A program made the translations under genes and the position numbers. This document shows positions 8,358-45,002 of a DNA stretch of 45,002 nucleotides, in pieces; position 1 is the stretch's first letter; every line of letters starts with the position of its first letter. The DNA lies in the IMG/VR virus record IMGVR_UViG_3300045988_174610, positions 1 through 45,002 of that record; one strand, 5' to 3'. Source of the stretch: a virus. The notes beneath the pieces were generated by a model. The model was not told where the DNA came from, searched no databases, and saw nothing but the letters and a program-made list of their open reading frames with translations.

Positions 8358-9362
8358 TTAAGCCGAGAGTCGGAACACGCGGGATTCAGAAGTTTTGACG
8401 TATGCCGCATAAGTCTCCGGCTGCTCTTTCTTGAATCGGGTGGAGTCGAATCGATTTGCTTTCTGATACTTGAAAGTGCAGGCCTTCTCGCCAGCGATGG
8501 TGAAGCCCGTCTTTTCTCCGAGGGCTGCGCAGATTCGATCCTTGACAACCTTTTGTTCACCTTCGAGTTCCTTGATTCGCTCAGTGATGGTTCGCAGTTC
8601 TCCGATGTCGGCAGCCACTTCATTGGTTGCCTCGATCATCTCGCCGTCATCCTGAGCGAAAAGCTTCTGCACCTCCTCCTGGGTGGCGGGAGCCGGCGGC
8701 ACCTGCGCGAGGACGTTTTGGTACCAGAACTCGCGGCACTGCGACTGCAGGGCGTCGATCACGTCGTTGTCACGAGCGACGCAGTAAATGCGGAAGTCCT
8801 GGCCTCCGAGTAGTGCGGCCACATAGCAGCGCTTGGCGCCAGTCACCCCCATGTACCACTGAACCTGCGTCTCGTAGTAGATGGGGATTTTGTGCTCGGT
8901 TACGATCTTGCCTGCCACGATCTCGGCCTCTTGGCTCGGCCCCCACTGATCGGCGATAAAGCTTGACGCTGTTTTGCACTCGAGGATCGCGTCGGTTGTG
9001 AGGAGGCGCCCGGTCTCTGCCTGCTTGTCTTCGTCCAAGACTCGGACGTTGCCCGAGAGTTCGGGGTTCACAACGGCTCGGTCGATGTTGGCGTGCATCC
9101 AACCGTCGAGCGAGAGCTGCGAGTTGACCTTCTGCACTTTCATGCCGGTTCGCTTTTGGAACTCTTTGGACACGATGTCTTCGAGCTGAGTTCCCCAGTA
9201 GGCAACCTGGCTCTGCTCTGAGTCGGAAACTTCTCCGACCTTGTCGTTGTAAACGTCAAGTGCCGACTTGTATCGGCTAAGTCCGAGGATTGCGGCGACG
9301 TCGCTGCCGCCGATGCCTGTTTGTCGTGTCTTGAGCCATTCAAGGCGTTCTGCTGATGTCAT
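8358..9362 (-). CDS. YqaJ-type (lambda Exo-like) recombination exonuclease
   Basis: N-terminal WLKTRQTGIGGSDVAAILGLSRYKSALDVY is the YqaJ signature. Immediately upstream of recT. Confidence 0.8.
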   Translation of the reverse strand: MTSAERLEWLKTRQTGIGGSDVAAILGLSRYKSALDVYNDKVGEVSDSEQSQVAYWGTQLEDIVSKEFQKRTGMKVQKVNSQLSLDGWMHANIDRAVVNPELSGNVRVLDEDKQAETGRLLTTDAILECKTASSFIADQWGPSQEAEIVAGKIVTEHKIPIYYETQVQWYMGVTGAKRCYVAALLGGQDFRIYCVARDNDVIDALQSQCREFWYQNVLAQVPPAPATQEEVQKLFAQDDGEMIEATNEVAADIGELRTITERIKELEGEQKVVKDRICAALGEKTGFTIAGEKACTFKYQKANRFDSTRFKKEQPETYAAYVKTSESRVFRLSA

Positions 9363-9372
9363 GGTTGTGTCC

Positions 9373-9552
9373 CTAGATGAACGGTGCGAGTTTCCAAAAA
9401 AGAAGCGCAGCGACTCCGGCGAAGGAGACTGCGCTGCTGGCGATGAGAACTCGGTACTTTTTGACGAGTGCTCGGCGCGCCTGCCATTTGTGGATAAGCG
9501 CCTGGCGCTCTTTGTGCTTCTGCAGTGCTGGGTCGAAGTAAGCCTCTGTCAT
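9373..9552 (-). CDS. Small membrane protein (59 aa, below the ORF-track cut-off)
   Basis: Own translation: MTEAYFDPALQKHKERQALIHKWQARRALVKKYRVLIASSAVSFAGVAALLFWKLAPFI. Ends 10 nt before the exonuclease start. Confidence 0.4.
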   Translation of the reverse strand: MTEAYFDPALQKHKERQALIHKWQARRALVKKYRVLIASSAVSFAGVAALLFWKLAPFI

Positions 9553-30437: not shown

Positions 30438-33400
30438 ATGAAAGAGAACCTGAACCCCGCCTTTGAGGCCATCGACGAACTCGCGGCAGAGCAGAAACAG
30501 CGCCAGGAGCAAACTGGCGCACAGATGCAGGCGTACACAAAGCAACTCGAATCAGTTCAGCAAGAGGCAGAAACCAACAGCAATCCTGCCTTTGCGGTGA
30601 TTGATGAAATGCAGGCCGAGCGGCGTCGCTCCGCGGGTGCGCTTGTTAGCGGTGATGCTATGAAGGCGGCCAAAGTGCGAGATCTTTCCGAACGCTACGG
30701 AACTACGCGCACGGCCGCAGAGATCAACTACGACACGCTCTTTGCCCAGGCAAACCGTGACGATGCGGACGAAGCTCTGACGCAGGCACCTTCACTGGCC
30801 AAATATTTCGCCGAAAACCAAAAAGATGCGCCGATCTTCAAGGATGATCTTGGGGTGCTTTCGCGCATTGAGGAAGGGTTCCGCAAGATCGGTTCTCGCT
30901 ACTCTTCAAATTCGAATGAACCTGTTGATGCCCAACCCAATGCGAAGTACTGGGACACGGAAGAAACTACGGGAGACGCTGCGCTTGACGAACGCATTCG
31001 CCCGATGGTGAATTCCTCGCAGATCGGGCGCGGCGCACAGGCAGGATGGCTCATCGGACAGCAAGGCTTGATGTGGGCTGAGGCCGGCAACAACAAGGCT
31101 CGGCTTAATGACGAATTCAAGAAGCGTGATAAAGAGATCGACAAGGATCTCGAACAGCTTGCGGGTGACGACTCGGATGCGGCTTTCTACAACGCCGCGC
31201 AGATTGTCGGCACGATGCTTTCGACTATGCTCGGCGGTTCAGAAGGTGCGGTTGCCGGCGGTGCATTGGCCACGGGTGCTATGGCTGTCGGTGCGGCTCC
31301 TGCCTCAGTGCCCATTCTTTTGGGCGGCATGGCGCTTGGCATGGGCACTGAAGGAACGCGAAAAGTCGAAGGCGGCCTTTCTTTGAAGACCCTCATTGAT
31401 CAAGGCGTGCCGTATGAAAAAGCCGTACAGATTGCAGGATCCGTGGGCGCAGTCAATGCCTTGATCGAAATGGGCGGCGTGAGTGTGCTCGGCAAGGCCT
31501 TCAGCCCAATTGCCAAATCATTGAATTCTCTTTTTACCAGCAAGTCCGTAAAAGCCCTTGAGAGTCCGACGTTGCGCGGTGCGTTCATGGACGTCGCCCG
31601 CTTGTACACAATGGGCGTCGGGCAGGAAGTCATCACCGAGGCCGCGCAGGAAGTGACCTCAATGGTAGGCGAAGAGGTCGGCCGCCTTTGGGGTGAAACG
31701 GGCGCCAAAGGCATTTCGATGGACGAGGCCATTGACCGCATTCTTGATGTCGGAGAGATGACACTGAAGGGCTCTGCCGTGCTTGGTGCGCTGAGTACGG
31801 GTCCGGTCATGGTCAACCATGCTGCCAAGATAAACCGCGCGAATCAGACGAAGGAATTTTTTGAAAACCTCACACAGGATGTGGCGCAGATGAAAGGTGC
31901 AAACCTTTCTCCGGGTGCCACCAAGGAAGTAATTGATGGCGTGGCACAGGATGCCGGCGCGGGAACGATTTATGTCGACGGTTATGCGTTCCGACAGGTA
32001 ATGGTTGAAGCCGGCGTACGGCCTGAAGATCTTGAGCAGGTGGTCCCCGGCTTGTCTCAGCAGGTGGATGCGGCAGCTGTAAACGGCACCGATGTGACGA
32101 TGAGCACAGGCGACTTTGCGGCACGTCTCGCGGCTTCTCCATTTGGGCAAAAGCTCGTGCCCCACATGCGCCTTAACGAAAACGACCTTTCTCAAGTTGA
32201 AGCTGATAACCTCGAAAAGTCCGTTAAGCAAATGCGCCGCGCAGCCGTTCGGTACGCGATCAACCCCGACGAGCAGATTGTTGATCCCGACGAGCTCAAA
32301 GTTGAAAACGATGCAACGCTCACACCCGAACAAAAGAAAGAGCAGCGAAAGGCCATACGTACCGGTCGCGAACAGAGACGCCAAGCGGACAAAGACGCAC
32401 GCGACGCGTACGTCACTGGTATTACAAACAGTCTGACGCAAGCCGGATTCTCGTCGCGAGAGGCTCGCACACAGGCTCGATTTGCCGGCGCTGTGATGAG
32501 CAACCTTGCCAAACGTCTGGAAATACCTGTGCAAGAAGCGGTCGATCGCTATGGGGTGAATGTTTCTGTGAGTGACGACAGTCCCTCGGGAAACAGATTC
32601 AACATGCCCATCACTCAGGGGATTGAGTGGCCTATGGGGCCGTCCAAGACAATCAAGCCTGATGACACTTTGACGGTTATTCGTGTCACAAATGCCCCTG
32701 TGAGTCGGAAAGAAGCTGTTGCGCAAGCCGCAGATGTTTTTAGCCGTGGTGTTACCAATAAGAGTACCGGATTTGTTTTGACTGCTTCTCGCAGTGACAT
32801 GAAAAAGGCCGCAGGTGGTATCGGCTCGTTAAAAGAACGGGTGTTCACAGCTGTGGCTATGGATATTGCCAGAATCGCAGAAGAATCGATTTTGGTTGAA
32901 AGCCACGTAGATGTACAGCACCGAAACCCCAAGGTTCAGGGTGTTCATCACTTCATTGCCCCTGTTGAATTTGGCGGCAAACTTTGGAGGGTGCAGCTCT
33001 TAGTGCGGGATATTGTCGAGCCGAAAAATGACCGAGCGATTGTTCACTCGGTTGATGGTATCGATATCCAGGAAATGGAAACCCCGCCCGGTGGTATTAG
33101 CCAATCGGAGAGCGGGGCTTCTTACGTCAATGGGGTCGCGGCCGCAGACAACCGACTAGTCCGCCTTGACACCGATAGTGGGCCCACTGACCGTACTCTT
33201 AGTTTAACAGACTTGATTGGAGGTCGCGTTCCTTACGAGCGCGCAGATGGTCGAGGTTTGTTTGATGCGGTAGAAGAATCTTCTTTCGCCGAAAACGGTG
33301 TCTATTACGAGGCTCCTGTATTCAATCAGACAGCTTGGCACGGGTCGCCGCATCAGTTCGATCGATTCTCAACCGAACACATCGGCTCTGGCGAAGGTGC

Positions 33401-36400
33401 TCAGATGCACGGCTGGGGGCTGTATTTTGCAGATGACCAGGCAGTTGCAGATCGGTATCGCGGGAGCCTTGTGATCGGACGAGGAGGAAACGAATACTCG
33501 ATTGCATACAAGGGGGCTCGACCGGAGGAACTTCCTCAATCTTTGCGCGTCGGGTTAGAAAGGCTGAAGGGCAATGTTCTGCACATCGATAGCGATATCC
33601 GGAGAGAGTATGAATCGCTTGTTTATTCGTTGAATGAACGATTCGAGGCTGCCGATCGGATTGCGAAAGTTTACGAAGGACTGATCGCTCAGATTGACGA
33701 AAATCCCAAACAGTCAATTTCGTCGTTTTTGGCACGCGTTCCGGAAGATGAAAAATACCGAGCCGATCTTGCGGTGAAAAGTGCCCGTGCTGCTGCTAAG
33801 AACGAAGGTAGAAGAGCTTCTGTCCATGATGTTCGTACACAGCTAAACGACTCGCTTGCAGCAGTAGATCAGCAAAGGCGTGAGAACAAAGAGCCACTGG
33901 ACGCTTTAAGACAAATTGATCCGGATGACTTGACGGTTGAATACGACTCCGGACGTGTTTTCAAAGTTGACATTCCTGACCCCGACAAAATGCTTGACGA
34001 ACAAAAGCTCTGGGGAGCCGGCAGCAATTTTGAGTTGAAGGCAAAAATTCGCGGGATGATTAGCGAATGGAATGGTGACCATTTGGACACGGAACAAATG
34101 ATCTATGTTCCAGATAGGCCGACAGGACGCGATGTTTATCAGGCTATCTCAAAAGCAATGGGCGGTCCTAAACAGGCGTCTTTGTGGCTGAAAGACCGAG
34201 GGATCGAGGGCATTACCTATGTGGGCGGAACTGACGGACGATGCTACGTTGTCTTTGACGACCAGGCTATTGAAGTCCTCGACTTCTATCAGCGTCAAGG
34301 CGGCGAATCTTTGGGATCCTACTCCCCGACCGAAAACCGCATCACGCTGACGCCGAATGCCGACCTTTCGACCTTCTCTCACGAGATGGGCCATTGGTAC
34401 CTGAACACGTTATTTGCCGTTGCTCGCGCCGGTGATGCCACACCTTCCATCCTTGAAGACGTCAACGCCGTCATGAAGGAGTTCGGCCTTTCGGGGATTG
34501 CCGAGTGGGATGCCTTGGGCTTTGAAGGCCAGCGCAAGTACCACGAGCGCTTTGCATCTTGGACGGAGCAGTATCTCGCCGAAGCCAAGGCTCCTGTCGG
34601 CTTAAAGAAGTTCTTCCGCACTCTGGGCAAGTTCATCCGCGACGCCTACCGCACTTTTATGGCCGGCGTTGTTGAAGGTACGCAGACTCGCTACCGTCAG
34701 GAAACAGGCGAAGAGCTCCCGATGTTCTCCGAAGAAGTCCGACGCGTGCTTGACCGCATGGTTGCGGGCGAAGCAGCCGTTGAGCAGAACGAACAGGCCC
34801 AGAGCCTGACGCCGCTTTTCGAAACAAAGCCTGATGGCATGAGCGACGAAGAATGGCGGGAATACGCAGCAGAGCACGACGATGCGGTTCAGTCCGGCGC
34901 AGAACTGCTTGCAAAAGCACAGGCAAAAGACGAGCGCTGGTACTCGAACGCACGAAGCAAGATCCTCAAGGAGATGCAGGCTCGTGCCGAAGAGATTCGC
35001 AAGAATACGCGCGAACGCGTGGAAGCCAGACTCATGAAAAGCCGCGAATTCACGGCTCTCAACATTCTGCAATCTTCAGATCGTCCTGGTATTGCGTTTG
35101 ATGCCCGCATCGATCCGAAATCGCTCGATGGCTTGCTTGAAGCCGGGCAGATCGAAATTCTACGAAAGGCAGGTATGCTCAAAGACGGCGGGGTTGATGT
35201 GAAGGTCTCCCGCGAACTGCTTCGTCCGTTTGCCAACTTCCGCTCCGATCGGACGTTCCTTAATGGCCTTCTGCGTGTTGCCGATAAGGAAAGAGTCATT
35301 GAAGAGCAGACAACGGCTGAATGTTTGAAGAAGTACGGCGAGCTCTTTGATCCCGTCAAGCGCGACAAGACCGTATCGAAGGCGCTTCACAACGAAGCCC
35401 GAGGCCGCATGGTTGCCACCGAGCTCAAGTACCTGATCAACGACAAGGAGGCGCGTTCGCGCGTTTACCTGGCCGCGGCACGGCAGGCGGCAATGGCTCT
35501 CGTGGACCGCACGAGAATCGGCAAAGCGAAGGTCGCGACTTTCCTTTCTGCGGAAGGGCGTGCTGCACGCCGTGCTCTGGAGGCGTTCCGCAAGGGAGAT
35601 CTTGAGGCCGCCGCCAACTTCAAGCGGCAGCAGATTGTTAACCATGAAGCCGCGCGCCTTGTGTCCGAGGCTGAAGATAAGCGCGAACGCCTCAAGGAGC
35701 TGCGCAACCTTGTATTCAAGTCCGACAAGAAGCTTGCCGCTAGATACGACACGAATATCATGGCCGTTGCTCGCGCGGTGCTCACGAATCGCAACATGGG
35801 CAAGGCGACAGAGAACGTAGACGATGCCGTCGAGGAAATCCTGAAGAAGGTCAAGCAGTACGATCCGGAAATCTTCGAGGGCCTGAAGTCGTTCATGGAT
35901 CGGCATCCTTACAGCCCTGGGCGCGATCCGTCGATGCTGACTGTCGCGGGATTCATCGGCGTGGTTGATGACGTACAGGCGCTTGTCAAACTGGCTCGAG
36001 ACGCGCGCCAAATCACTCTTGACGGAAAGAAGCAGGACCTCGACCAAGCTATCGAAGCACTCAAGAAAGCGATCTTGTCCGCGGACAACACTCGCTTTCG
36101 CCCCGGACAGGAACGTGCTTCCACCAAAAAGGAAGAGAACCGCAAGCTCTACTTTACGGCTCGGGCTTTTGTCATGCGCGTGGAAAACTGGTGCCGGGCC
36201 ATGGACAACGGGCAGGACTTGGGGCCGTTTACGCGCTACATATTCCGCCCCGTTGCCGACGCCGCAGCCAAATACCGCGTCAAGAACGCTGAAATCCAGG
36301 AACGATTTGCAGCTCTCATCAAGCCCATGGAAGAGAAATGGGAAGAGGTTGGAGAGATTGAGGCGCCGGAGCTTGGCTACACGTTCGAGCGCAAGTCCGA

Positions 36401-38261
36401 ACTCATCGGCGCATTGATGCACATCGGCAACGAGTCGAACAAGTCGAAGATGCTCATTGGTGGACGCGGTGAAGATGCTTCGTGGGCGGATCGTGTCGTA
36501 CTGGCAAACGGCGAAGTGATCTACTCCTATGCGCGTTGGGACCGCTTCTTTGCTCGGGCCATGCGCGAAGGCATCATCACAAAAGACGACATGGACTTTG
36601 TACAAGCCGTTTGGGATCTGCTCGAAGAAACCAAGGGCATGTCTCAGAAGGCTTTCAAGGAGTACTACGGCTTCTACTTCGACGAAGTGCAGGCTTCGCC
36701 CGTTGTAACTCCATGGGGCATCTACCGTGGCGGCTACGTTCCCGCAGCCACTGATCCGATGCTTGTAGCCGGGCGCGACAAGCAGATCGAACAGGATCTT
36801 TTTGAGTCGCAGAGCGAATACCAAGACATGATGCCTGTGACGCAGCCCGGTTGGTCGAAGGCACGTGAGAAGAAGTACTACAAGCCGTTAGTACTCAACG
36901 TCGGCATGCTTGGTGCACACATCCAGAGCGTCGTGAAGTTCGCGATGATGGCGCCGGCGGTGAAGAACGTACAGCGCATCGTCAAAGATCGCCGCTTTGC
37001 GGACCTGATGAACGACATCGATCCCAAGGTCATCAGTGACATGCTTACGCCTTGGCTGCGTCGCTCTGCCACGCAGACAATATCAACTCCCACGAATGCC
37101 TTCGGGCGAATTCTCAATCAGGTTCGCGGCCTTGCCGGCATGAGCCTGATGGCGGGCAACGTGGCAAACGTGCTGCAGCAGTACACAGGATTCAGCATCG
37201 CCATGTCGGAAGTAGGCGCCAGAAACACTGCTCAAGGCCTGAAGGAATACTTGCGCGATACGAAGTCTGCATATGCCCGAGTGACGGAAGCATCGACCTT
37301 CATGAAGGGCCGACTCGAAGACTTCTGTTTTGAGTACCAAAACGAAGTCAACCGAATTGCCTCCTCTCGCGCTCCGACAAAGGTTGAAGAAGTGCGCGAC
37401 TGGACGCAGCGGAAGGCTTACATTCTGCAGACTCTTGCGCAGCGGACCATCGACATCCCCGTGTGGCTTGCGGCCTACAACCAGGCAATTACGGAAAAAG
37501 GCATGGCTGACGCGGATGCGGTGTTCTACGCCGACAGCGTAGTGCGACGCACGCAGTCCTCTTTTGCCCCTGAGTCCGTGTCCAGGGTGGAAACAGGCGA
37601 CCCGCTTCAGCGCAGCATTCTTGTGTTCTACAACTACTTCAACATGCAGCTGAACCTGCTTCGCGAGAGTTACACGAGAGCTAAGACAACAGGGAAATAC
37701 GGTCGCTTTACTTTGGACTTCGCGATGATTGTGGCCATTCCCGCAATCCTTTCCGAAGTGATTGCACAGGCATTCAGCGGGTTTGATACGGGCGACGACG
37801 ATGATTGGGACGCAGTCGACGGGCTTCAGCTTGCGATCACATCGGTCAACAAAAACATGGTGGCCATGCTTCCGTTCTTTGGAAACGTCATCAATATGAC
37901 AGGCACGAAGATGTCTAGAGGCGACTATGGCGCCGTGAGCGACGTCTCAAAGATGCTCTTCGGCAACGATCCGTACAACGACAAACTTGTAAGTGTGCCG
38001 GTCATGTCGTTGTTCGAGAACTCAGCCGAGGGCGCTAAGAACCTACTTCTTCTGCTCTTTAGCGAAGAGTACGATCCGGATCCCCGACGCGCAGCACGCA
38101 ACACGCTTGACCTATTGACCTTGATGACAGGTATTCCGTTCAGCGGCGTAAAGAAGCCTGTTGGATATTTGGCCGGTGTTGCGGGTGACGAATACAGCGT
38201 TGACAACCCGGTTGATTTCACGCGCGGATTTATCAGCGGCAAAGATCCGAACGCTGAGTAG
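30438..38261 (+). CDS. Giant (2607 aa) internal virion / polyvalent ejection protein with HExxH metallopeptidase motif
   Basis: Single uninterrupted 7.8-kb ORF. Glycine-zipper hydrophobic segments near aa 250-330 and near the C-terminus. WHGSPHQFDRF..IGSGEGAQMHGWGLYFA motif at about nt 33336-33440. FSHEMGHWY (HEMGH at nt 34380-34394). Confidence 0.8.
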   Translation: MKENLNPAFEAIDELAAEQKQRQEQTGAQMQAYTKQLESVQQEAETNSNPAFAVIDEMQAERRRSAGALVSGDAMKAAKVRDLSERYGTTRTAAEINYDTLFAQANRDDADEALTQAPSLAKYFAENQKDAPIFKDDLGVLSRIEEGFRKIGSRYSSNSNEPVDAQPNAKYWDTEETTGDAALDERIRPMVNSSQIGRGAQAGWLIGQQGLMWAEAGNNKARLNDEFKKRDKEIDKDLEQLAGDDSDAAFYNAAQIVGTMLSTMLGGSEGAVAGGALATGAMAVGAAPASVPILLGGMALGMGTEGTRKVEGGLSLKTLIDQGVPYEKAVQIAGSVGAVNALIEMGGVSVLGKAFSPIAKSLNSLFTSKSVKALESPTLRGAFMDVARLYTMGVGQEVITEAAQEVTSMVGEEVGRLWGETGAKGISMDEAIDRILDVGEMTLKGSAVLGALSTGPVMVNHAAKINRANQTKEFFENLTQDVAQMKGANLSPGATKEVIDGVAQDAGAGTIYVDGYAFRQVMVEAGVRPEDLEQVVPGLSQQVDAAAVNGTDVTMSTGDFAARLAASPFGQKLVPHMRLNENDLSQVEADNLEKSVKQMRRAAVRYAINPDEQIVDPDELKVENDATLTPEQKKEQRKAIRTGREQRRQADKDARDAYVTGITNSLTQAGFSSREARTQARFAGAVMSNLAKRLEIPVQEAVDRYGVNVSVSDDSPSGNRFNMPITQGIEWPMGPSKTIKPDDTLTVIRVTNAPVSRKEAVAQAADVFSRGVTNKSTGFVLTASRSDMKKAAGGIGSLKERVFTAVAMDIARIAEESILVESHVDVQHRNPKVQGVHHFIAPVEFGGKLWRVQLLVRDIVEPKNDRAIVHSVDGIDIQEMETPPGGISQSESGASYVNGVAAADNRLVRLDTDSGPTDRTLSLTDLIGGRVPYERADGRGLFDAVEESSFAENGVYYEAPVFNQTAWHGSPHQFDRFSTEHIGSGEGAQMHGWGLYFADDQAVADRYRGSLVIGRGGNEYSIAYKGARPEELPQSLRVGLERLKGNVLHIDSDIRREYESLVYSLNERFEAADRIAKVYEGLIAQIDENPKQSISSFLARVPEDEKYRADLAVKSARAAAKNEGRRASVHDVRTQLNDSLAAVDQQRRENKEPLDALRQIDPDDLTVEYDSGRVFKVDIPDPDKMLDEQKLWGAGSNFELKAKIRGMISEWNGDHLDTEQMIYVPDRPTGRDVYQAISKAMGGPKQASLWLKDRGIEGITYVGGTDGRCYVVFDDQAIEVLDFYQRQGGESLGSYSPTENRITLTPNADLSTFSHEMGHWYLNTLFAVARAGDATPSILEDVNAVMKEFGLSGIAEWDALGFEGQRKYHERFASWTEQYLAEAKAPVGLKKFFRTLGKFIRDAYRTFMAGVVEGTQTRYRQETGEELPMFSEEVRRVLDRMVAGEAAVEQNEQAQSLTPLFETKPDGMSDEEWREYAAEHDDAVQSGAELLAKAQAKDERWYSNARSKILKEMQARAEEIRKNTRERVEARLMKSREFTALNILQSSDRPGIAFDARIDPKSLDGLLEAGQIEILRKAGMLKDGGVDVKVSRELLRPFANFRSDRTFLNGLLRVADKERVIEEQTTAECLKKYGELFDPVKRDKTVSKALHNEARGRMVATELKYLINDKEARSRVYLAAARQAAMALVDRTRIGKAKVATFLSAEGRAARRALEAFRKGDLEAAANFKRQQIVNHEAARLVSEAEDKRERLKELRNLVFKSDKKLAARYDTNIMAVARAVLTNRNMGKATENVDDAVEEILKKVKQYDPEIFEGLKSFMDRHPYSPGRDPSMLTVAGFIGVVDDVQALVKLARDARQITLDGKKQDLDQAIEALKKAILSADNTRFRPGQERASTKKEENRKLYFTARAFVMRVENWCRAMDNGQDLGPFTRYIFRPVADAAAKYRVKNAEIQERFAALIKPMEEKWEEVGEIEAPELGYTFERKSELIGALMHIGNESNKSKMLIGGRGEDASWADRVVLANGEVIYSYARWDRFFARAMREGIITKDDMDFVQAVWDLLEETKGMSQKAFKEYYGFYFDEVQASPVVTPWGIYRGGYVPAATDPMLVAGRDKQIEQDLFESQSEYQDMMPVTQPGWSKAREKKYYKPLVLNVGMLGAHIQSVVKFAMMAPAVKNVQRIVKDRRFADLMNDIDPKVISDMLTPWLRRSATQTISTPTNAFGRILNQVRGLAGMSLMAGNVANVLQQYTGFSIAMSEVGARNTAQGLKEYLRDTKSAYARVTEASTFMKGRLEDFCFEYQNEVNRIASSRAPTKVEEVRDWTQRKAYILQTLAQRTIDIPVWLAAYNQAITEKGMADADAVFYADSVVRRTQSSFAPESVSRVETGDPLQRSILVFYNYFNMQLNLLRESYTRAKTTGKYGRFTLDFAMIVAIPAILSEVIAQAFSGFDTGDDDDWDAVDGLQLAITSVNKNMVAMLPFFGNVINMTGTKMSRGDYGAVSDVSKMLFGNDPYNDKLVSVPVMSLFENSAEGAKNLLLLLFSEEYDPDPRRAARNTLDLLTLMTGIPFSGVKKPVGYLAGVAGDEYSVDNPVDFTRGFISGKDPNAE

Positions 38262-38318
38262 CGTCCATAAACTCTTGAGTGCCGATGCGAGACTTCCAAC
38301 AAATGATTGGGGTCTCGC

Positions 38319-40634
38319 ATGGCACTTGCTTCTGAAACCAGACGGTCTCCTCGATACGTTGGAACCGGCACCGAAAAAACTTTCACGTTCGCCTTCAAGC
38401 TTCTCAAGCCTGAAGACGTTGACGTGCGCGTAGCTTTGAGCGGAGAGGATGAGGCGTCGCTTGCGACAAGCGAATACTCCGTCACGCTCAACGCAAACCA
38501 GGACAACAATCCGGGCGGCACGGTAACCCTTGTCTCTCCTCTGGCGCAGGGCGCGGTGCTGGTCATCGTGTCCGCGACGCCTTACTTGCAACCGTCCGTT
38601 TACACAAACCGCGGTGGCTTCTATCCGGAGCAGCTCAACACAAACTTGGATCGCCTCACGATCCTCACGCAACAGCTCAAGGAACAATCCGAACGCGCTC
38701 TGATCGTTCCGGTTACGTCCGAAAAGACGCCGGAAGAGACGATGACGGAAATTCTGGACGTGGCAGACAAGGCCAACGAGTACGCCCAGAAAGCCGAAGA
38801 GACTTATCAGGAAGTGCTCGAGACGCAAGAAGAAATTCTCGAGACTCAAAATCAAGTCGATGCAGCTCTGGCGGAAGTTGAGTCGGATCGTCAAGAAGTC
38901 GCGGAGAACACGCAAAGCGTTTCCGAGATGCTCCAGCGAGCAGAAGAAATCGATGCGGGCGTTCAGGAAGTTCTCCCGGTTGTCGATGATATTGCTTCCA
39001 TTGGCGATCACATGGAGAGCGTCATCACTGTTGCTGATGATCTCCAGGGGTATCCGATTGCCTCCATGGACTTCGGCTCCATTACTGATCCGTCTGAACC
39101 TACTACGGTTGTTGACGGAGGCAATATCAAGGCTGTTGCTGACAACATTGCGGACGTTTCGAACGTTGCCGAAAACGTCGATGATGTTGTCCAGGCGGTG
39201 GGGAAAGCTGAGGAGGCCATTGCTTCTGCAAGTGCAGCTGCTGCGTCAGCTTCTGCTGCGGATGCTTCAGCGAAGGCAGCCGCCGCGTCCGCAGCTACAG
39301 CGCAAGCCGGAAGCGAAGCTGTCGAAGAGGGGTTGCAGGATGCACTGACGGCGATCGATACCGCGGCGCAATCGCAGGTGTCGAACCTTCAGTCTAAGGG
39401 GGCTGAACAGATTTCGGCGATCGGGAACGCTGGGGCGACACAGGTAGCAGCAATTGAGTCCGCGGGTCAGACTTACGCCGACCTTGCTGAGGCCTGGGCT
39501 CAGAAGATGGATGGTAAGGTCGAGGAGGATGCGTCAGACGCAGATGCTGGGTACTCGTCACGGTACTACGCAGGCCTTGCGCAAGACGCTGCAGATAGCG
39601 CCGCCTCGAATGCGACGCTCGTCTCTCAGAGCGTATCTACCGCCGTAACCAAAGCACAAGAGGCAGAAGCCTCGGCAACCTCAGCAGCAGGAAGCGCGGG
39701 GCAGGCGGCCTCGTCGGCGAGCGATGCCGATGCTTCGGCACAGACGGCCACTACGAAGGCGAGCGAAGCCTCCGCATCCGCAACCGCCGCAAAGGGTTCA
39801 GAAACTGCGGCTGCAGGTAGTGCCACGTCGGCGTCGAATTCGGCCGGTGCCGCGGCAACGTCGGAAACCAACGCGAAGGCGTCGGAGGCTGCGGCAGCAC
39901 AGAGTGCCTCTGCAGCATCCACTTCAGAGACCAATGCGAGAACTTCGGAAACGAACTCAAAAGCTTCCGAAACGAATGCCAAAGGCTCGGAAACCGCTGC
40001 GGCTAGTAGTGCTTCGTCTGCTGGAAGTTCTGCAACAGCAGCTCAACGTGCTCAGACAGCGTCGGAAACAGCGAAAGGCCAGGCAGAAACTGCCCGTGAT
40101 GCGGCGATTGCCGCACAAACTGCGGCTGAAAATGCGAAGGCGGCGGCTGAAGCGGCACGCGACGAGGCACAAGAAATTTCCGGCTCCATCGGCGATCCTC
40201 TAGGAAAGGCAGAGGCGGAGACGCTTTACGCGAAGATTGCTCACGTACATGCGTTAAGCGTTGGCGGAGATGCAACAGGTTCTGCTTCCCTTGGCAAAGA
40301 GACCGCAACAATGACGTTGACCCTAACGAATAGCGGCGCGACGGCAGGGGCGTACGGACCAGAGGCTGACAGTCCTATTGCTTTCGGAGGAACGATCCTT
40401 GTCCCTAGCGTAACGGTCGATGCGAAAGGTCGCGTCACGTCGATTGTTTCTCGGACGCTCACGATGCCAGCGGAGATCACTTGGGCAATCATCCAGGGGA
40501 AACCGTCGGCGTTCACTCCAGCAGAGCACTCGCACACAATGGATCAAGTCACGGGCTTGGGGACACTTGCCTCAAAGAATGCTGTCGGAGCGGCGGACCT
40601 GGCTGACACACTGGATTTTGGAGGATTGGCGTAA
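38319..40634 (+). CDS. Tail fibre (long Ala/Ser/Thr/Glu-rich shaft, HxH-containing C-terminal repeats)
   Basis: N-terminal beta domain, coiled shaft with SETN(A/S)K heptad-like repeats, and C-terminal AHVH / PAEHSHTMDQVTGL fibre-repeat motifs. Confidence 0.75.
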   Translation: MALASETRRSPRYVGTGTEKTFTFAFKLLKPEDVDVRVALSGEDEASLATSEYSVTLNANQDNNPGGTVTLVSPLAQGAVLVIVSATPYLQPSVYTNRGGFYPEQLNTNLDRLTILTQQLKEQSERALIVPVTSEKTPEETMTEILDVADKANEYAQKAEETYQEVLETQEEILETQNQVDAALAEVESDRQEVAENTQSVSEMLQRAEEIDAGVQEVLPVVDDIASIGDHMESVITVADDLQGYPIASMDFGSITDPSEPTTVVDGGNIKAVADNIADVSNVAENVDDVVQAVGKAEEAIASASAAAASASAADASAKAAAASAATAQAGSEAVEEGLQDALTAIDTAAQSQVSNLQSKGAEQISAIGNAGATQVAAIESAGQTYADLAEAWAQKMDGKVEEDASDADAGYSSRYYAGLAQDAADSAASNATLVSQSVSTAVTKAQEAEASATSAAGSAGQAASSASDADASAQTATTKASEASASATAAKGSETAAAGSATSASNSAGAAATSETNAKASEAAAAQSASAASTSETNARTSETNSKASETNAKGSETAAASSASSAGSSATAAQRAQTASETAKGQAETARDAAIAAQTAAENAKAAAEAARDEAQEISGSIGDPLGKAEAETLYAKIAHVHALSVGGDATGSASLGKETATMTLTLTNSGATAGAYGPEADSPIAFGGTILVPSVTVDAKGRVTSIVSRTLTMPAEITWAIIQGKPSAFTPAEHSHTMDQVTGLGTLASKNAVGAADLADTLDFGGLA

Positions 40635-41044
40635 TGGCGAAAACAGTGCAGTGGCGAGGAGGAACCGCCGCAGAGCACGGAAATTTCACGGGTGCAGCTC
40701 GTGAGGTGACGGTGGAGACCGATACCGGAGCTCTGCGCGTACATGACGGTTCGACAGTCGGAGGGACTCGTATCGCAACCGAGGCAGAGCTTAAGCAGTG
40801 GGTCACGAGACAGCTTGATATCCAGACTCACGAGATAGCAGATATCACCGGATTGCAGGCGGCGCTCGACGCCACTGTGAAGACGACGGGCGACCAAACG
40901 ATCGAAGGCACCAAAACCTTCTCGGCCAAGATCGTGGCTTCTGCCGGCGTTCAAGGGAAAGCCGATTCGGCAGCTACCTCCGACGACGCTCAGTCCATGC
41001 TGGCCGCATTCCAAGAATTCGCACAGGAGAACGGAATTGTCTGA
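40634..41044 (+). CDS. Short tail-fibre stem with Mtd-like N-terminal domain; no receptor-binding domain
   Basis: MAKTVQWRGGTAAEHGNFTGAAREVTVETDTGALRVHDGSTVGG closely resembles my recollection of the Bordetella phage BPP-1 Mtd N-terminus (MSTAVQFRGGTTAQHATFTGAAREITVDTD...VHDGATAGG). It is followed by HEIADITGLQAALD...GDQTIEGTKTF fibre repeats and then stops at 136 aa. Confidence 0.7.
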   Translation: MAKTVQWRGGTAAEHGNFTGAAREVTVETDTGALRVHDGSTVGGTRIATEAELKQWVTRQLDIQTHEIADITGLQAALDATVKTTGDQTIEGTKTFSAKIVASAGVQGKADSAATSDDAQSMLAAFQEFAQENGIV

Positions 41045-41426
41045 CGATCTGAAAACTCTAGTCGCCCAGGAAGTCGCCAAACAGCTGGCGGCCATCGCGG
41101 CCGACCAAACAACGAAGAAGGTTCTCGAGTTTTTGAAGAACCGGAACTCGGCGCTTGCATACGTTGTCGATAAAGGCGAGTCCGGAGGAATCAGTTGGCG
41201 AATTTGGAGTGATGGATTGATCGAACAGTGGATGTCAGATCATTCCAAAAACAAAGCTTATACATTTCCAAAGCCATTCTCGTCAGATAGTTATTGTGTG
41301 ATAGGGATTGGTTTTCTGGTAGATGAAGTTGCGCAACAGTTTATCTATAAGAGCGCTACGGGATTCCAAACTGATTCCGCCGGGCATGCAACAGCAACAG
41401 ATTCGTGGTACGCAATCGGATATTGA
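41037..41426 (+). CDS. Tip cassette C1 (gp53-like C-terminal tail-fibre tip fold), no homopolymer (locked ON)
   Basis: TTG start 7 nt after AGGAGA, overlapping the stem-gene stop. Contains KKVLEFLKN helix, GESGG (GGA GGA at 41184-41189), ISWRIWSDGLIEQW core, and ends SWYAIGY. Confidence 0.65.
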   Translation: MSDDLKTLVAQEVAKQLAAIAADQTTKKVLEFLKNRNSALAYVVDKGESGGISWRIWSDGLIEQWMSDHSKNKAYTFPKPFSSDSYCVIGIGFLVDEVAQQFIYKSATGFQTDSAGHATATDSWYAIGY

Positions 41427-41435
41427 GGATTAGGT

Positions 41436-41796
41436 ATGGCAACAGCAGATCAAATCGTGAAGAAAGTCCTCACAGAGTTAAACAAAAAGATTGATTCAGT
41501 GGGGGGGGGTAGTCGATAGTTGGACGGACGGTCAAGGTAACTTTTGGCGGAAGTATTCTGACGGTTTCATTGTGCAAGGCGGAACAGAACCCTATACAGC
41601 GAAGTCAGGAGTCGTGACGTTTCACATTCCGTTTTCAACTGCTAATTGCGTAGTTGTAGCGCCGACAGCCGAAGTCACTTCAACTGATAGTGATGGTGTT
41701 GATATGGCAACTATGGTTTCTGACTTTACAGCTAGCTCTTTTAGATACTCCCGCAGTAGTGGAAGAACAGTCCCTTGGGTGGCGTATGGATACTAG
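41436..41796 (+). CDS. Tip cassette C2, phase-OFF in this assembly (G9; G8 gives a 119-aa protein)
   Basis: ATG at 41436 after GAGGA. MATADQIVKKVLTELNKKIDSVGG, then the G tract, then in the -1-shifted frame VVDSWTDGQGNFWRKYSDGFIVQGG...VPWVAYGY. The current frame stops at TAG 41517-41519. Confidence 0.7.
41501..41509 (+). repeat. G9 homopolymer in C2
   Basis: Counted directly: cagt GGGGGGGGG tagtcgatag. Confidence 0.95.
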
Positions 41797-41809
41797 AAAG
41801 GAAATCGAA

Positions 41810-42192
41810 ATGACAGAAGTAATTCCCCAGGTGGGGGGGTATCTGAAAACCCCACGACTAAAGCGGTTTTGTCTTGGTTCAAGACACAAATCGGAAAAGC
41901 CGACCAGGTTGTCGAGGAGTGGCACGAGGGTTCGGAATGGTACATAAAGCACTCGAATGGATTCATCGAACAGGGTGGGATTTATTCAACCTCAGATTCA
42001 GGCATAACAACAATATCTTTTATCGCCCCATTTTCAGAGGTTGAGACCGTGAGAGTGTTCGCCCACAGCGATAAGGCGCGTGATTCTGGGGATGAGTGGC
42101 ACAGCCACTTCCTACCGTACAACATTACTACAAATACTTTCACTCTTAGATCGGCAAATCCAGAACGGCGATGGTATGCCTGCGGCTATTAA
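41810..42192 (+). CDS. Tip cassette C3, phase-OFF in this assembly (G7; G8 gives a 127-aa protein)
   Basis: ATG at 41810 after AAGGA. MTEVIPQVGG, tract, then VSENPTTKAVLSWFKTQIGKADQVVEEWHEGSEWYIKHSNGFIEQGG...RRWYACGY in the other frame. The current frame runs to a stop at 41947. Confidence 0.7.
41833..41839 (+). repeat. G7 homopolymer in C3
   Basis: Counted directly: cag gt GGGGGGG tatctg. Confidence 0.95.
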
Positions 42193-42204
42193 ATGAGGTT
42201 AAAA

Positions 42205-42579
42205 ATGGCAGAAACAGACTTTTATATCGGACAAATCTTTGAGGAAACCTATCCTCCCGAGGCTGCGGTGTGGTGCAACAGCCACGGCGACCGCTACATC
42301 ACAGAGCTTGAAAAGGAAGGAGCCAAGCGCCGCTTCCAGATCGTGGCGGTGCCGGAGCCGACAACCGAGGAGATCGCCGCACAGGTGCGAGCAAAGCGCG
42401 ATGCCTTGCTGGCGGAGACGGACTTCCTGATGATGCCGGACTACCCGCTCGGCGAAGAAGACGCGACCGCCTTGAAGACCTATCGCCAGGGGCTGCGCGA
42501 CGTACCGACCCAGGAGGGCTTCCCGACCGAAATCACGTGGCCTGATTTTCCCGCAACGCTTTCCAAGAAGGTGGCTTAA
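42205..42579 (+). CDS. Tail-fibre assembly chaperone (Tfa-like)
   Basis: C-terminal pattern RAKRDALLAETDFLMMPDYPL......LKTYRQGLRDVPTQEGFPTEITWPDFP is the classic tail-fibre-assembly/DUF4376-type motif. Same TGAGGTTAAAAATGGCAGAA start context as C5. Confidence 0.7.
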   Translation: MAETDFYIGQIFEETYPPEAAVWCNSHGDRYITELEKEGAKRRFQIVAVPEPTTEEIAAQVRAKRDALLAETDFLMMPDYPLGEEDATALKTYRQGLRDVPTQEGFPTEITWPDFPATLSKKVA

Positions 42580-42948
42580 ATGGCAACAGCTGATTCGACC
42601 ATAAAAGCGGTCTTAAACCACCTCCTTCAGAATGGGGGGGGTAATCATAAAGTTATTGAAGAATGGCACAGTGAATCAGGAGGCCAGTGGTGGAGGAAGT
42701 GGTCTGATGGATATTTAGAGCAAGGCGGATTGTGGAATGAAGCTGGCCCTGCTGAAGGATATACAAACAGGACTATCACTCTTCCAGTCAGTTTTGGAAC
42801 AGTGAATTATGTCGTGGTTGTTCAGTCAGGTTTTCGAGAAAACTCTGGATTGGGAACTTACGTCTCGGAAAAAGATACTTCTTTTTTTAAAGCAAAAAGT
42901 GCATCTAATCCACCGAATGCTGCTACATGGTACGCTTGCGGATATTGA
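42580..42948 (+). CDS. Tip cassette C4, phase-ON (G8)
   Basis: MATADSTIKAVLNHLLQNGGGNHKVIEEWHSESGGQWWRKWSDGYLEQGG...ATWYACGY. Intact 122-aa ORF through the tract. Confidence 0.75.
   Translation: MATADSTIKAVLNHLLQNGGGNHKVIEEWHSESGGQWWRKWSDGYLEQGGLWNEAGPAEGYTNRTITLPVSFGTVNYVVVVQSGFRENSGLGTYVSEKDTSFFKAKSASNPPNAATWYACGY
42634..42641 (+). repeat. G8 homopolymer in C4
   Basis: Counted directly: cagaat GGGGGGGG taatcat. Confidence 0.95.
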
Positions 42949-42957
42949 GGTTTAAAA

Positions 42958-43325
42958 ATGGCAGAAGCGAATCAAACGATTAAGAAAGTTTTGAACCACC
43001 TGAATTCCAAGATCGGAACGGGGGGGTAGTCGATAGTTGGAGCGATGGGCAGGGGAACTTTTGGCGGAAGTACGCCGATGGGTGGATTGAACAGGGTGGC
43101 ATTATTGTGGATCAAAGCGAATCGAAAATCGAAACATTAACTTTCCACACCAGTTTTTCAAACACGAGCTATTCTCTTTTCCTAAGCAAACAAATTTCGT
43201 CGACTGACACATCGTTTTCTGCTAGGGCAATTGGTGATATGTATTCCGATAAGCAGGTGTCCAGTGTAAAGATTTTTCATTGGGGCTTGGCAACTAATTT
43301 GACTTGGTTTGCCTGCGGATATTAA
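42958..43325 (+). CDS. Tip cassette C5, phase-OFF in this assembly (G7; G8 gives a 122-aa protein)
   Basis: ATG at 42958 after GAGG. MAEANQTIKKVLNHLNSKIGTGG then an immediate TAG. The other frame continues VVDSWSDGQGNFWRKYADGWIEQGG...TWFACGY. Confidence 0.7.
43020..43026 (+). repeat. G7 homopolymer in C5
   Basis: Counted directly: ggaac GGGGGGG tagtcgatag. Confidence 0.95.
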
Positions 43326-43336
43326 AGGAAATAGAC

Positions 43337-43720
43337 ATGGATAAAGTTTCACGAGTGGGGGGGGTAGCCTCTCCTGATGTTTTGAAGGTTTTGGAGTGGT
43401 TCAAAAATCAGATCAAATCCAACAAAGGAATTGTCGAAGAGTATCACGACGATTTAGGTTTTTACGTTAAATTCGCAGGCGGCCTGATTGTGCAAGGCGG
43501 AGCGCTTACAGTGGTATCTACCCAGACCATCACTTTTCGCACTCCTTTTTCGGGTATCGCATACTCGTTAGCCTTACTTCCAATCCTTATTAAAACTGGT
43601 GAGTCTTGGGGAGAAGCACCGCGAGAAATGAGTGGAACAAGAACTACCTCAAGCGTCAGCATCTGGATGAACGGCACTGCACAAGATCGAACAGGTTCTT
43701 GGATTGCCATCGGCTACTGA
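43337..43720 (+). CDS. Tip cassette C6, phase-ON (G8)
   Basis: ATG at 43337 after AAGGA. MDKVSRVGGVASPDVLKVLEWFKNQIKSNKGIVEEYHDDLGFYVKFAGGLIVQGG...GSWIAIGY, intact through the tract. Confidence 0.75.
   Translation: MDKVSRVGGVASPDVLKVLEWFKNQIKSNKGIVEEYHDDLGFYVKFAGGLIVQGGALTVVSTQTITFRTPFSGIAYSLALLPILIKTGESWGEAPREMSGTRTTSSVSIWMNGTAQDRTGSWIAIGY
43357..43364 (+). repeat. G8 homopolymer in C6
   Basis: Counted directly: cgagt GGGGGGGG tagcc. Confidence 0.95.
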
Positions 43721-43726
43721 CTCTTC

Positions 43727-43746
43727 GCCCTCTTCGGAGGGCTTTT
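43727..43746 (+). terminator. Rho-independent terminator of the late/tail-fibre operon
   Basis: GCCCTC-TTCG-GAGGGC followed by TTTT, 7 nt after the C6 stop. Confidence 0.75.
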
Positions 43747-43756
43747 CAGAAAAGTA

Positions 43757-43788
43757 AAACCCGCCTCAGTCAAAACCGAAGCGGGTTT
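43757..43788 (-). terminator. Hairpin downstream of the porin gene (probable terminator)
   Basis: AAACCCGC-(16 nt)-GCGGGTTT; on the reverse strand it is followed by TACTTTTC. Confidence 0.45.
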
Positions 43789-43821: not shown

Positions 43822-45002
43822 TTAGAACTTGTGACGGATACCGATCATAGCACCGAAGACGGTGGGGTCTTCGTCTTCTACACCAGAGGTGTTGTGGTCA
43901 AAGCTATCCTGGTTATACGTAACAACACCATAGATGTTGGTGCGCTTGGAGAGCGGATAATCGTAACCGGCAGACACGATCCAACGGTTCAAATCGACAC
44001 CCCCGAGCCAACCACCCATGCGGTCATCCATGCTGTCGGCGGATTCGGCGTCCATGTAAGAAGCGCCGAGCAGAACGTTACCACCTGCCGCGGGAATGGC
44101 AGCGGAAATGCCAAGGCTCCAGCCTTTCACATAAACGTACTTAGAGCCGTCCTCGACGTTCAACATGTTTTCGGCAGCCAGATCAACCAGATCCGTTGCT
44201 GCGCCAGAGAAGCTAGACAGGCGAACTTCGTCAAAATAGGCGGCGCCAGCAAAGAGCTTCACGACCTCAAAGTCGTAGTTACCGCCGAAACGAACTGTCA
44301 GGCTGTCGTCGATGTCGTCGGCGGCACCCTCAGCAGCCGTAAGGCCGGCAGTCTTATAGTTGATTGAGTCGACGGCGAAGTAGAGGTTAAGAGGACCATT
44401 AGCGTAGGTTGCGCCGATGGCGTAGTAACGATCGCTGCCAGATTCGTTTTCATAGTCGTTGGAACCCATGCCGTACTGGGCGAACACTGTGAAGCCGGCG
44501 AAGTTCGGGGTTTCGTAGGCAATCATGTTGTCCCATTTGCCGGAACCACCAAAGACCGTATCGGCTTGAGCAGCGTAGCCACCCCAAGACGTACCAAAGG
44601 CGGACATCATACCCTGCTTACCCCAGGAAGACACGCCACCATTAATGGAACCGATGCGGCCCATGGCCAACTTACCAAAACCGCCCTGGATAAAGAGGCT
44701 CGATTCACGATCAAACATCTGGTCTTTTTCAGCGCCAGTGTCAGAGGCAAAGCCGTCTTCAAGGATGAAGCCCACCGTCAAACCGTTGCCGAGGTCTTCA
44801 GTACCCTTCAAGCCCCAACGAGAGCCGGACTGCATGCCGGATTCCATAGAGAAGGTGTCTGTCGCGTCATAGCCGTTCGGGGCTTCTGCGCTGGTTGCAT
44901 CCAAATCGCTGTGTAGATAACGGAGGCCCGTATCAACGATACCGTACAGCTGAACGTCAGCAGCCAGAGCGGAACCGGCGAAAGCGCCGAGAACTGCAAC
45001 TG
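43822..45002 (-). CDS. Phage-borne general porin (Gram-negative trimeric porin; OmpC/PorB-like), body of the gene; 5' end at nt 56-74 across the junction
   Basis: Mature N-terminus ADVQLYGIVDTGLRY, alternating beta-strand pattern, GSRWGLKG, and C-terminal ...GAMIGIRHKF with terminal Phe. The frame is open from 44904 to the window end and joins the signal peptide at nt 1-74. Confidence 0.85.
   Translation of the reverse strand, partial: VAVLGAFAGSALAADVQLYGIVDTGLRYLHSDLDATSAEAPNGYDATDTFSMESGMQSGSRWGLKGTEDLGNGLTVGFILEDGFASDTGAEKDQMFDRESSLFIQGGFGKLAMGRIGSINGGVSSWGKQGMMSAFGTSWGGYAAQADTVFGGSGKWDNMIAYETPNFAGFTVFAQYGMGSNDYENESGSDRYYAIGATYANGPLNLYFAVDSINYKTAGLTAAEGAADDIDDSLTVRFGGNYDFEVVKLFAGAAYFDEVRLSSFSGAATDLVDLAAENMLNVEDGSKYVYVKGWSLGISAAIPAAGGNVLLGASYMDAESADSMDDRMGGWLGGVDLNRWIVSAGYDYPLSKRTNIYGVVTYNQDSFDHNTSGVEDEDPTVFGAMIGIRHKF
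44948..45002. repeat. Terminal overlap copy 2 (identical to 1..55)
   Basis: Same 55-nt string as nt 1-55. It ends exactly at the window edge. Confidence 0.95.

Follow-up and report, generated by a model that had tools for sequence, protein, structure and literature searches.

We analysed the virus record IMGVR_UViG_3300045988_174610 of IMG/VR over its full length of 45,002 nucleotides (nt), a stretch referred to below as the window, and found that positions 41037–43720 hold six paralogous tail-fibre tip genes together with one fibre chaperone gene. Five of the six tip genes carry near their 5′ end a homopolymer of at least seven G that determines by its length whether the gene, otherwise intact, is read in frame, and relatives that are identical or nearly identical in the surrounding DNA differ in the lengths of these tracts, in-frame (ON) and out-of-frame (OFF) alleles both being present. 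We consider it likely that the array is a contingency-locus bank of alternative receptor-binding tips, carried on a conserved fibre end. The genes and tracts are listed below together with the stem gene that precedes them; the starts of the tip genes were re-assigned in this analysis relative to those of the first-pass annotation, a reading of the sequence made before the present work.

40634–41044, + strand: stem, 136 residues, with Mtd_N (Pfam, 9.5e-16) and BppL_N (2.3e-6) domains and without a receptor-binding head
41037–41426, + strand: g1, tract-less tip, 129 residues, TTG start, intact (PF21882, 5.4e-7)
41436–41796, + strand: g2, class A tip, with the helix ahead of the tract, OFF; 119 residues at G8
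41501–41509, + strand: tract of g2, G9, ON length 8
41810–42192, + strand: g3, class B tip, with the tract between a short leader and the helix, OFF; 127 residues at G8
41833–41839, + strand: tract of g3, G7, ON length 8
42205–42579, + strand: tail fibre assembly chaperone, 124 residues from the Shine-Dalgarno-proximal ATG (PF16778 Phage_tail_APC, 7.7e-24; phrog_4912, 2.5e-27)
42580–42948, + strand: g4, class A tip, ON, 122 residues
42634–42641, + strand: tract of g4, G8, ON
42958–43325, + strand: g5, class A tip, OFF; 122 residues at G8
43020–43026, + strand: tract of g5, G7, ON length 8, with a TAG stop right after the tract
43337–43720, + strand: g6, class B tip, ON, 127 residues
43357–43364, + strand: tract of g6, G8, ON

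All tip genes lie on the + strand, each with its own Shine-Dalgarno sequence, and are separated by spacers of 0–13 nt. The first-pass annotation had described six such paralogues, five of them with a G7–G9 tract at the 5′ end, and a check of the sequence confirmed this description. The contiguous array that it implied had to be given up, since the chaperone gene (42205–42579, PF16778) splits the array between g3 and g4; the exact product of this gene occurs in 7 contigs. The TTG start of g1 overlaps the stop codon of the stem (ATTGTCTGA). A programmed frameshift joining the stem to g1 was considered and, judging from the sequence, appears not to operate: there is no slippery site at the overlap, and a Shine-Dalgarno sequence stands ahead of the TTG. 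The G+C content (GC) is 44–48% in the tips, 59.5% in the chaperone gene, 58% in the fibre and stem genes and 54% in the genome, a contrast that would fit horizontal exchange of the tips as cassettes. The array also resembles a duplicated pair of a class A and a class B gene with a spacing of about 1520 nt.

The five tip tracts (G7–G9) and a G10 tract at 232–241 are the only runs of at least six G or C in the 45 kb. There is no run of exactly six, and the next longest are nine G5 runs; the earlier statement that the five tracts and one intergenic tract are the only such runs of seven or more thus holds even at the lower threshold. A scan for GGGGGGG gave 13 overlapping matches at 6 sites where 2.8 were expected, and none of 100 dinucleotide-preserving shuffles reached 13. 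When all five tip tracts are set to G8, complete open reading frames of 119–127 residues are obtained, which end in W-x-A-x-G-Y and contain no further lesion. In the sequenced state only g4 and g6 of the five gated genes are ON (in gene order OFF, OFF, ON, OFF, ON), and the OFF frames stop after 27 codons in g2, 45 in g3 and 23 in g5. Some side observations concern g4. This gene contains a T7 run (42882–42888) at which its relative P0003, 94% identical, is frameshifted and runs past the normal stop; the start called for P0003 is an ATG that arises from AAT+G where the G tract begins. A G9 allele of the g4 type creates an overlapping stop and start, ATGGGGGGGGGTAA, which in principle could give a head without the adaptor helix.

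In g2, g4 and g5 the tract (codons ~19–23) comes behind the N-terminal helix, in g3 and g6 (codons 8–10) it comes ahead of it, and in g4 it is read in a different codon phase (AAT GGG GGG GGT versus GTG GGG GGG GTA). The tracts had first been placed at one homologous codon position in all paralogues; that part gives way to two positional classes and two codon phases, and the accompanying argument for selection at the level of DNA is strengthened by the change. Across 13 other genes of the phage, glycine is encoded by GGG less often than by any other codon (14%), and GGG-GGG is used in none of the 46 Gly-Gly pairs. The rarity of GGG elsewhere, the two positions, the two codon phases and the low GC of the tips together show that the tracts are selected as DNA, and their conservation across different phage backbones, described below, agrees with this. 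A requirement of the protein for a Gly-Gly hinge was ruled out as the reason for the tracts by the codon usage and by g1, which encodes its two glycines as GGA GGA.

Related contigs from the human gut were gathered through protein searches, look-ups of exact proteins and scanning of viral and metagenome collections, and are referred to by numbers of the form L001. All relatives of this clade (GC 0.48–0.57) carry G tracts at the same sites in the tip genes, and the lengths differ, the outcome of a check proposed in the first-pass annotation; no such tracts were found in phages of other clades with Gp53-like tips. Two tip genes of the more distant phage L038 (7939–9200, GC 0.57) have leaders of another kind but likewise carry G7 and G9 tracts near the 5′ end, and tract gating may, on this sequence, extend beyond the clade studied. 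The clearest polymorphism is that of L076, L077, L078 and L079, which come from four samples: with 0 mismatches over 855–1187 nt, the tracts of three adjacent tips read 8/8/8, -/8/9, 8/9/9 and 9/9/9. L003 and L004 differ over 8408 nt by 4 mismatches and 3 indels, two of the three indels lying in tip tracts, while L003 compared with L006, and L003 with L010, show 0 mismatches and a tract as the sole difference. L004 also has, at alignment column 4216 of its comparison with L003, a one-base indel in an A3/A4 run that breaks its 721-residue fibre gene; the gene called at the split fibre has 446 residues, and the break is either a real frameshift or an assembly error. Between the window and L001 the homologous tracts are G9/G6, G7/G9, G8/G8, G7/G9 and G8/G9, the g4 site is G7, G8 or G9 in 12 other contigs, and a single 90% protein cluster of close homologues of g2 includes a 119-residue ON form and a 101-residue OFF form with identical bodies. 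Seven assemblies of the window strain all read G9, G7, G8, G7, G8, which indicates that the assembled lengths are not noise.

Among 79 complete tip genes, chosen regardless of their ON or OFF state, the tracts were G6 in 3, G7 in 12, G8 in 12, G9 in 48 and G10 in 4; 13 genes (16%) were ON and 66 (84%) OFF. Most genes are in frame at a length of 8; where a flanking base differs, the ON length is 7 or 9. The share of gated tips that are ON varies from array to array, being 2/5 in the window, 0/6 in L059 and 4/5 in L076. A scan of a genome collection with an alignment of the conserved N-terminus gave 83 pattern matches, of which 0 were confirmed, and revealed no prophage with the array among the GTDB species representatives.

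The OFF genes were also checked for damage beyond the tract. None was found in the window, and among the relatives there was one exception: 1 of the 66 OFF alleles, in L063 (5001–5385), has TAG in place of CAG in the invariant EQGG motif, a nonsense codon that is absent from the near-identical sister contig L062. The ratio of nonsynonymous to synonymous substitution rates (dN/dS) was 0.18–0.44 in 12 homologue pairs, in some of which both alleles are OFF; in more distant pairs dS was saturated. The intact downstream frames and the low dN/dS show that these are functional genes caught in an OFF phase, not pseudogenes.

The resemblance of the tips to Gp53-like fibre tips, proposed earlier from sequence motifs, is now backed by profile, structural database and model. 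PF21882 (Gp53-like_C, gathering score 24.9 bits) matched all six tips, above the cut-off in g1 (30.5 bits), g2 (36.3), g5 (26.7) and g6 (32.2) and below it by 0.5–0.9 bit in g3 (24.0) and g4 (24.4), both clear paralogues of the other tips. A profile of the tip family matched in the PDB the AP22 gp53 fibre fragment (4mtm, 3.5e-5), in an alignment that takes in the helix ahead of the head (the neck), and the C-termini of R1/R2 pyocin fibres (1e-4 to 7e-4; 6cxb, 1.3e-4). The AlphaFold2 model of g4 (mean pLDDT, the predicted local distance difference test score, 79.7) has a helix at residues 6–17 followed by an eight-stranded beta-sandwich. With this model Foldseek returned as its best matches the R1/R2 pyocin fibre feet 6cxb, 6ct8, 6cl5 and 6cl6 (E 5e-5 to 1e-4, template modelling (TM) score 0.55–0.62), and at lower ranks receptor-binding domains of tailspikes and Helix pomatia-type lectins. 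From these matches the tips are free-standing neck-plus-head modules of a known receptor-binding fold. The tip body shares both fold and profile with the Gp53-like domain and the R-pyocin foot (PF21882; 4mtm, 6cxb, 6ct8, 6cl5, 6cl6); the solved Gp53-like domains, however, form the C-terminus of a long fibre polypeptide, whereas the tips are separate proteins of about 120 residues. That the tips are trimeric, attached to the virion and receptor-binding is a putative assignment drawn from genomic context, namely the place of the array after the fibre genes, the chaperone gene inside it and the conserved adaptor termini.

The part of the stem adjoining the array is itself conserved. Its C-terminal ~30 residues (40955–41041, ...TSDDAQSMLAAFQEFAQENGIV; TSDDAQSML-AF-EFA-EN) are 67–90% identical in 17 related loci, in every one of which this module lies directly upstream of the array. 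The same module ends three fibre backbones, the 136-residue Mtd_N stem of the window, a 721-residue fibre in L003 and a 402-residue myovirus-type fibre in L052 (coordinates 40955–41041, 5654–5740 and 6032–6112, respectively), and its presence on three different backbones suggests a portable docking module for tips. The N-terminal 33 residues of g1 are 68–100% identical in 15 related loci, each time next to the stem C-terminus. In all loci with enough sequence the layout is kept: the end of the fibre or stem, a tract-less first tip overlapping the stop codon, and then gated tips, an arrangement found on podovirus as well as myovirus backbones. Up to the tract the N-termini of the gated tips are near-invariant (MATADxTVKAVLNHLLQNGGG), and the heads are 36–50% identical.

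From these results, a mechanism may be proposed. The tract-less g1 would always be made and serve as the default tip. In the gated genes, slipped-strand mispairing during DNA replication would add or remove G's, and with the frame open only at G8 (or 8 plus or minus 3) each tip would flip heritably, reversibly and independently of its neighbours. If G9 is a rest length that lies one deletion away from ON, most tips would be OFF at a given time, and each lineage would express a sparse and differing subset. Trimers of the tips may dock through their conserved N-terminal helices on the C-terminal module of the stem, the candidate socket, through an interface that would involve TSDDAQSMLAAFQEFAQEN in the stem C-terminus (residues ~100–136) and the T-x-K-x-V-L helix of the tip. 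The states of the tracts would then determine which additional tips compete for sockets and, through them, which surface glycans or receptors the virions bind.

The wider genome is that of a temperate podovirus, and the features that bear on the array are the following.

3063–4142: integrase (PHROG)
38307–40634, + strand: tail fibre (shaft), 775 residues, of a T7/BPP-1-like podovirus tail module (phrog_1640, 1.3e-17; phrog_3279, 2e-11)
43727–43788: terminator hairpins at the end of both the late operon and the convergent porin gene (GCCCTCTTCGGAGGGCTTTT; stem from the terminator scan at 43757–43788)
43822–45002 and on into 1–73, − strand: phage-borne outer-membrane porin (a moron; Porin_4/Porin_1), between the tip array and the lysis genes
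232–241, + strand: the G10 tract, read as C10 on the strand of the porin and lying ~160 nt ahead of the porin start; an element similar in kind to the tip tracts, outside the tip array

The window is deposited in ENA as ERZ28624547 (MEHT18-1_SAMN06165053, scaffold_189) from a human-gut metagenome. Its termini are identical over 55 nt (1–55 and 44948–45002), and it is therefore a circularly closed short-read contig and a complete genome of 44,947 bp, not the prophage with host flanks for which it had first been taken. PHROG matches gave the gene set of a temperate podovirus: among the early genes a CI/LexA-like repressor, RecE, RecT, an O-like replication initiator and a DnaB-like helicase; for head and tail the large terminase, the portal or connector (labelled 'head-tail adaptor' in PHROG), the major head protein and tail tubular proteins A and B; and further internal virion proteins (one of 2607 residues), a holin, an endolysin and a spanin. 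The 775-residue fibre follows the tail module with its tail tubular proteins A and B and internal virion proteins. Immediately ahead of the fibre gene, 30438–38261 encodes the 2607-residue virion protein, whose size is very great for a podovirus genome of 45 kb; it matches phrog_9880, and its homologue in L001 is annotated with a MuF_C domain. A scan for tRNA genes found none, and a search of Rfam gave no match. Promoter scans found none in the tip array, sigma-70-like ones included, and none around the G10 tract. Tail tubular protein B is 91% identical to that of a contig from a metagenome-assembled genome (MAG) of Candidatus Duodenibacillus, which makes a gut member of the Sutterellaceae the probable host.

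The porin is of interest because of the tract upstream of it. L059 has the same porin and the same G10 tract. Chromosomal homologues of the porin, on contigs of up to 2.2 Mb, are 67% identical, occur in tandem pairs and have a homologous upstream region with C9. The porin-upstream tract showed no length variation within either group, being C9 in 4 chromosomal copies and C10 in 2 phage copies. Judging from these alignments, a host porin and the homopolymer-bearing region upstream of it seem to have been acquired together by the phage. A small + strand open reading frame after the G10 tract was rejected as a gene, as it is not conserved in L059.

Several points weigh against reading the array as a bank of switchable tips. 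From the seven invariant assemblies of the window strain, which may come from one study or subject, it follows that a strain can hold a stable consensus state. G9, an OFF length, makes up 61% of the tracts, and in the complete arrays of L059, L055 and L061 every gated tip is at G9 or G10; this could mean that G9 alleles are expressed through slippage at the level of RNA. Rho-dependent polarity caused by the early stop in an OFF gene could couple neighbouring genes, in which case their expression would perhaps not be strictly independent. Docking of the tips on the stem is suggested by one line of evidence, the co-conserved termini. The host was assigned from one MAG contig and the porin homology. 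Of the original proposal that slippage gates independently switching tips, the core is supported by the tract polymorphism, the intact OFF genes and the fold; an effect on receptor choice, adsorption and host range, heterogeneity within a population and the rate of switching are what we infer from sequence.

The alternative that survives best is recoding at the RNA level, in which case the functional alleles would be the common ones at G9 (or G7) and polymerase stuttering, or ribosomal slippage by +1 or −1, would supply a low amount of in-frame product. All tips would then be present in every virion at low levels tuned by tract length, a situation also compatible with heritable switching. In line with it, G9 is the mode (48 of 79), whole arrays at G9 and G10 are kept intact under purifying selection, g5-type G7 alleles read ACG GGG GGG TAG, that is, a slippery G_GGG_GGG heptamer followed by a stop, and tRNA-Gly should be able to re-pair perfectly after a shift within the G run. 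However, tract length varies in the DNA of otherwise identical contigs, in-frame G8 included, and no conserved stimulatory structure was found downstream of the tracts. The G9 mode is also predicted by mutational bias alone: according to PMC3401435, polyG tracts of Campylobacter jejuni have a modal length of G9, G8 mutating mostly by insertion and G11 mostly by deletion. On balance we regard RNA-level recoding as unlikely to be the principal explanation, although slippage on G9 or G7 alleles may contribute some leaky expression.

Alternatively, the tracts could serve mainly as recombination junctions, sites of micro-homology where the constant N-terminal adaptor meets the variable head and where cassettes are exchanged, with the frameshift as a side effect. 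Four independent chimeras, in which a class A N-terminus is fused exactly at the tract to a class B body, speak in its favour, as do the near-invariant N-termini in front of the more divergent heads and the apparent duplication of the class A and class B pair. The chimeric tips, which look like deletions running from the tract of one gene to that of its neighbour, are as follows.

L013, at 9175 (9113–9550)
L052, at 8426 (8359–8820)
L062 and L063, at 4231
L076, at 5191

Recombination, however, does not need eight or nine identical G's maintained against the codon bias, and the longer conserved 5′ coding sequence would be better suited to homologous exchange than the tract; the one-base length polymorphism in identical backgrounds is left unexplained. 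As the main purpose of the tracts this explanation is improbable, and a role as junctions appears secondary to switching and no replacement for it.

The lengths might instead reflect homopolymer errors of sequencing or assembly, all tips being truly in frame. Homopolymers are generally error-prone, and the contigs L004 and L006 end in or beside a tract, but the window strain gave the same five lengths in all seven of its assemblies, short reads underlie the contigs (as judged by the k=55 overlap and by SPAdes/MEGAHIT-style names), and the lengths range from 6 to 10 in patterns consistent for each strain. Even if lengths were miscalled, five codon-biased G tracts would need explaining, and we give this account very little weight. 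That the array is a set of redundant tips dying by frameshifts at mutational hot spots, as the 84% of alleles out of frame, the added nonsense codon in L063 and the second frameshift at the T run of P0003 might suggest, is hardly credible given the intact downstream frame of 65 of the 66 OFF alleles, the dN/dS of 0.18–0.44, the existence of ON alleles of the same genes and the conservation of the tracts across divergent paralogues and phage backbones.

Two classical routes to variable fibres were rejected. A diversity-generating retroelement (DGR) was excluded, as there are no template and variable repeats (TR/VR): the sole long direct repeats are those between paralogues and the terminal overlap, and the Mtd_N domain is all that is shared with such systems. 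No signal of a reverse transcriptase was seen, though not every open reading frame was scanned for one. An invertible segment or shufflon was likewise excluded: the tips are all on the + strand, the window contains no inverted repeat of at least 45 nt, and no invertase was seen. Within 40600–43760 only two weak inverted-repeat pairs of 15–16 nt were found, neither of which flanks a tip gene.

Returning to the bank of switchable tips, a broader synthesis may be offered, although we hold it only tentatively and would not put its odds as high as even. The array would be a portable plug-and-socket host-range module of unrelated temperate phages, podoviruses and myoviruses, of gut Sutterellaceae, consisting of a socket, a default tip and up to six polyG-gated lectin-like tips. 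With G9 as a rest state one step from ON, a genome would express on average about one extra tip, a sparse combinatorial form of bet-hedging. The tracts would double as junctions for the fusion and deletion of cassettes, and the host lineage would have similar tracts ahead of its porins, of which the phage would have captured one copy.

If confirmed, these results would mean that phase variation of receptor-binding proteins by homopolymers is not confined to phages of Campylobacter and occurs, in a more elaborate form, in temperate phages of the human gut. They would bear on how one prophage lineage keeps pace with hosts of varying surface. Tract lengths would provide a marker of the host-range state of a phage that can be read from sequence in metagenomes; with 84% out of frame at a given time, most of the tips would escape gene callers. 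The combination of socket, adaptor helix and head may also be a natural modular scaffold for engineering the specificity of phages or tailocins.

Several known systems share parts of this arrangement. The small adhesin gp38 of T2- and S16-type phages is encoded beside the fibre gene, caps the fibre tip and determines the receptor. It resembles the tips in being a separately encoded fibre-tip adhesin, a type of protein also treated in PMC12892980, and differs in its unrelated fold, its single gene and the absence of homopolymer gating. In Mu (Gin), P1 (Cin) and shufflons, alternative fibre C-termini are likewise stored in the genome and chosen stochastically; there, however, a 3′ end is swapped, whereas here each alternative is a separate and complete gene. 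BPP-1, with its Mtd protein and DGR, is also a temperate podovirus with a T7-like tail module, has Mtd_N on a fibre-distal protein and diversifies receptor binding, but the phage described here lacks the C-type-lectin body of Mtd and would choose among pre-made heads instead of mutating one.

With the contingency loci of bacteria (Campylobacter jejuni, Neisseria, Haemophilus) the array shares the 5′ intragenic homopolymer, the switching of frame between ON and OFF, and independent loci that yield combinatorial states. The tip tracts match those of C. jejuni in their modal G9, and a length-dependent indel bias is described there (PMC3401435). The difference is that the tracts reside in a virus and gate virion proteins, not genes for modification of the cell surface. 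Contingency loci have also been reported in the coliphages T2 and T4, in whose tail fibre genes simple sequence repeats are under-represented (0.77x; Gomez, Barrick and Waters, bioRxiv 10.1101/2025.10.21.683753). Both cases involve short homopolymers in phage genes and reversible frameshifts for bet-hedging, but here the tracts are exclusively concentrated in tip genes and are longer (7–10).

The closest parallel is offered by the Fletchervirus phages of Campylobacter. The first-pass annotation was not aware of any phage system with an array of homopolymer-gated receptor-binding genes; this claim to novelty does not stand, as phase-variable receptor-binding proteins switched by hypermutable polyG tracts have been published for that genus (Sørensen et al. 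2021, Cell Rep 35:109214, as described in PMC8713573, PMC10579305 and bioRxiv 10.1101/2025.10.21.683753). According to the same sources, these phages have up to four receptor-binding proteins, two of them phase-variable, with tracts of 7–11 G. The likeness extends, as far as these texts describe it, to G tracts inside the receptor-binding genes, to several such proteins per phage, some of them switched ON and OFF, and to the outcome, here a presumed one, of a diverse progeny that copes with a variable host surface. Among 50,697 phage records, which include phages of Campylobacter, blastn found no match to the array, and tblastn of g4 against the same records gave only two weak, uninformative matches (a human-faecal contig and one Salmonella phage). 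Together with the temperate podovirus backbone, this indicates a system that works like that of Fletchervirus and lies outside that lineage. No description of such a tandem gated tip array was found in the literature searched. Fletchervirus phages are large virulent myoviruses of an epsilonproteobacterium, whereas the arrays described here sit on temperate podovirus and myovirus backbones with a probable host among gut Sutterellaceae. They consist of four to six small paralogous tips in tandem, each gated tip with a tract of its own, with a tract-less default tip, a shared adaptor and socket, and more gated genes than in Fletchervirus. The principle of switching receptor-binding proteins by polyG was thus already known; what is new here, as far as the sequences suggest, is a larger modular bank of small tips on a common adaptor.

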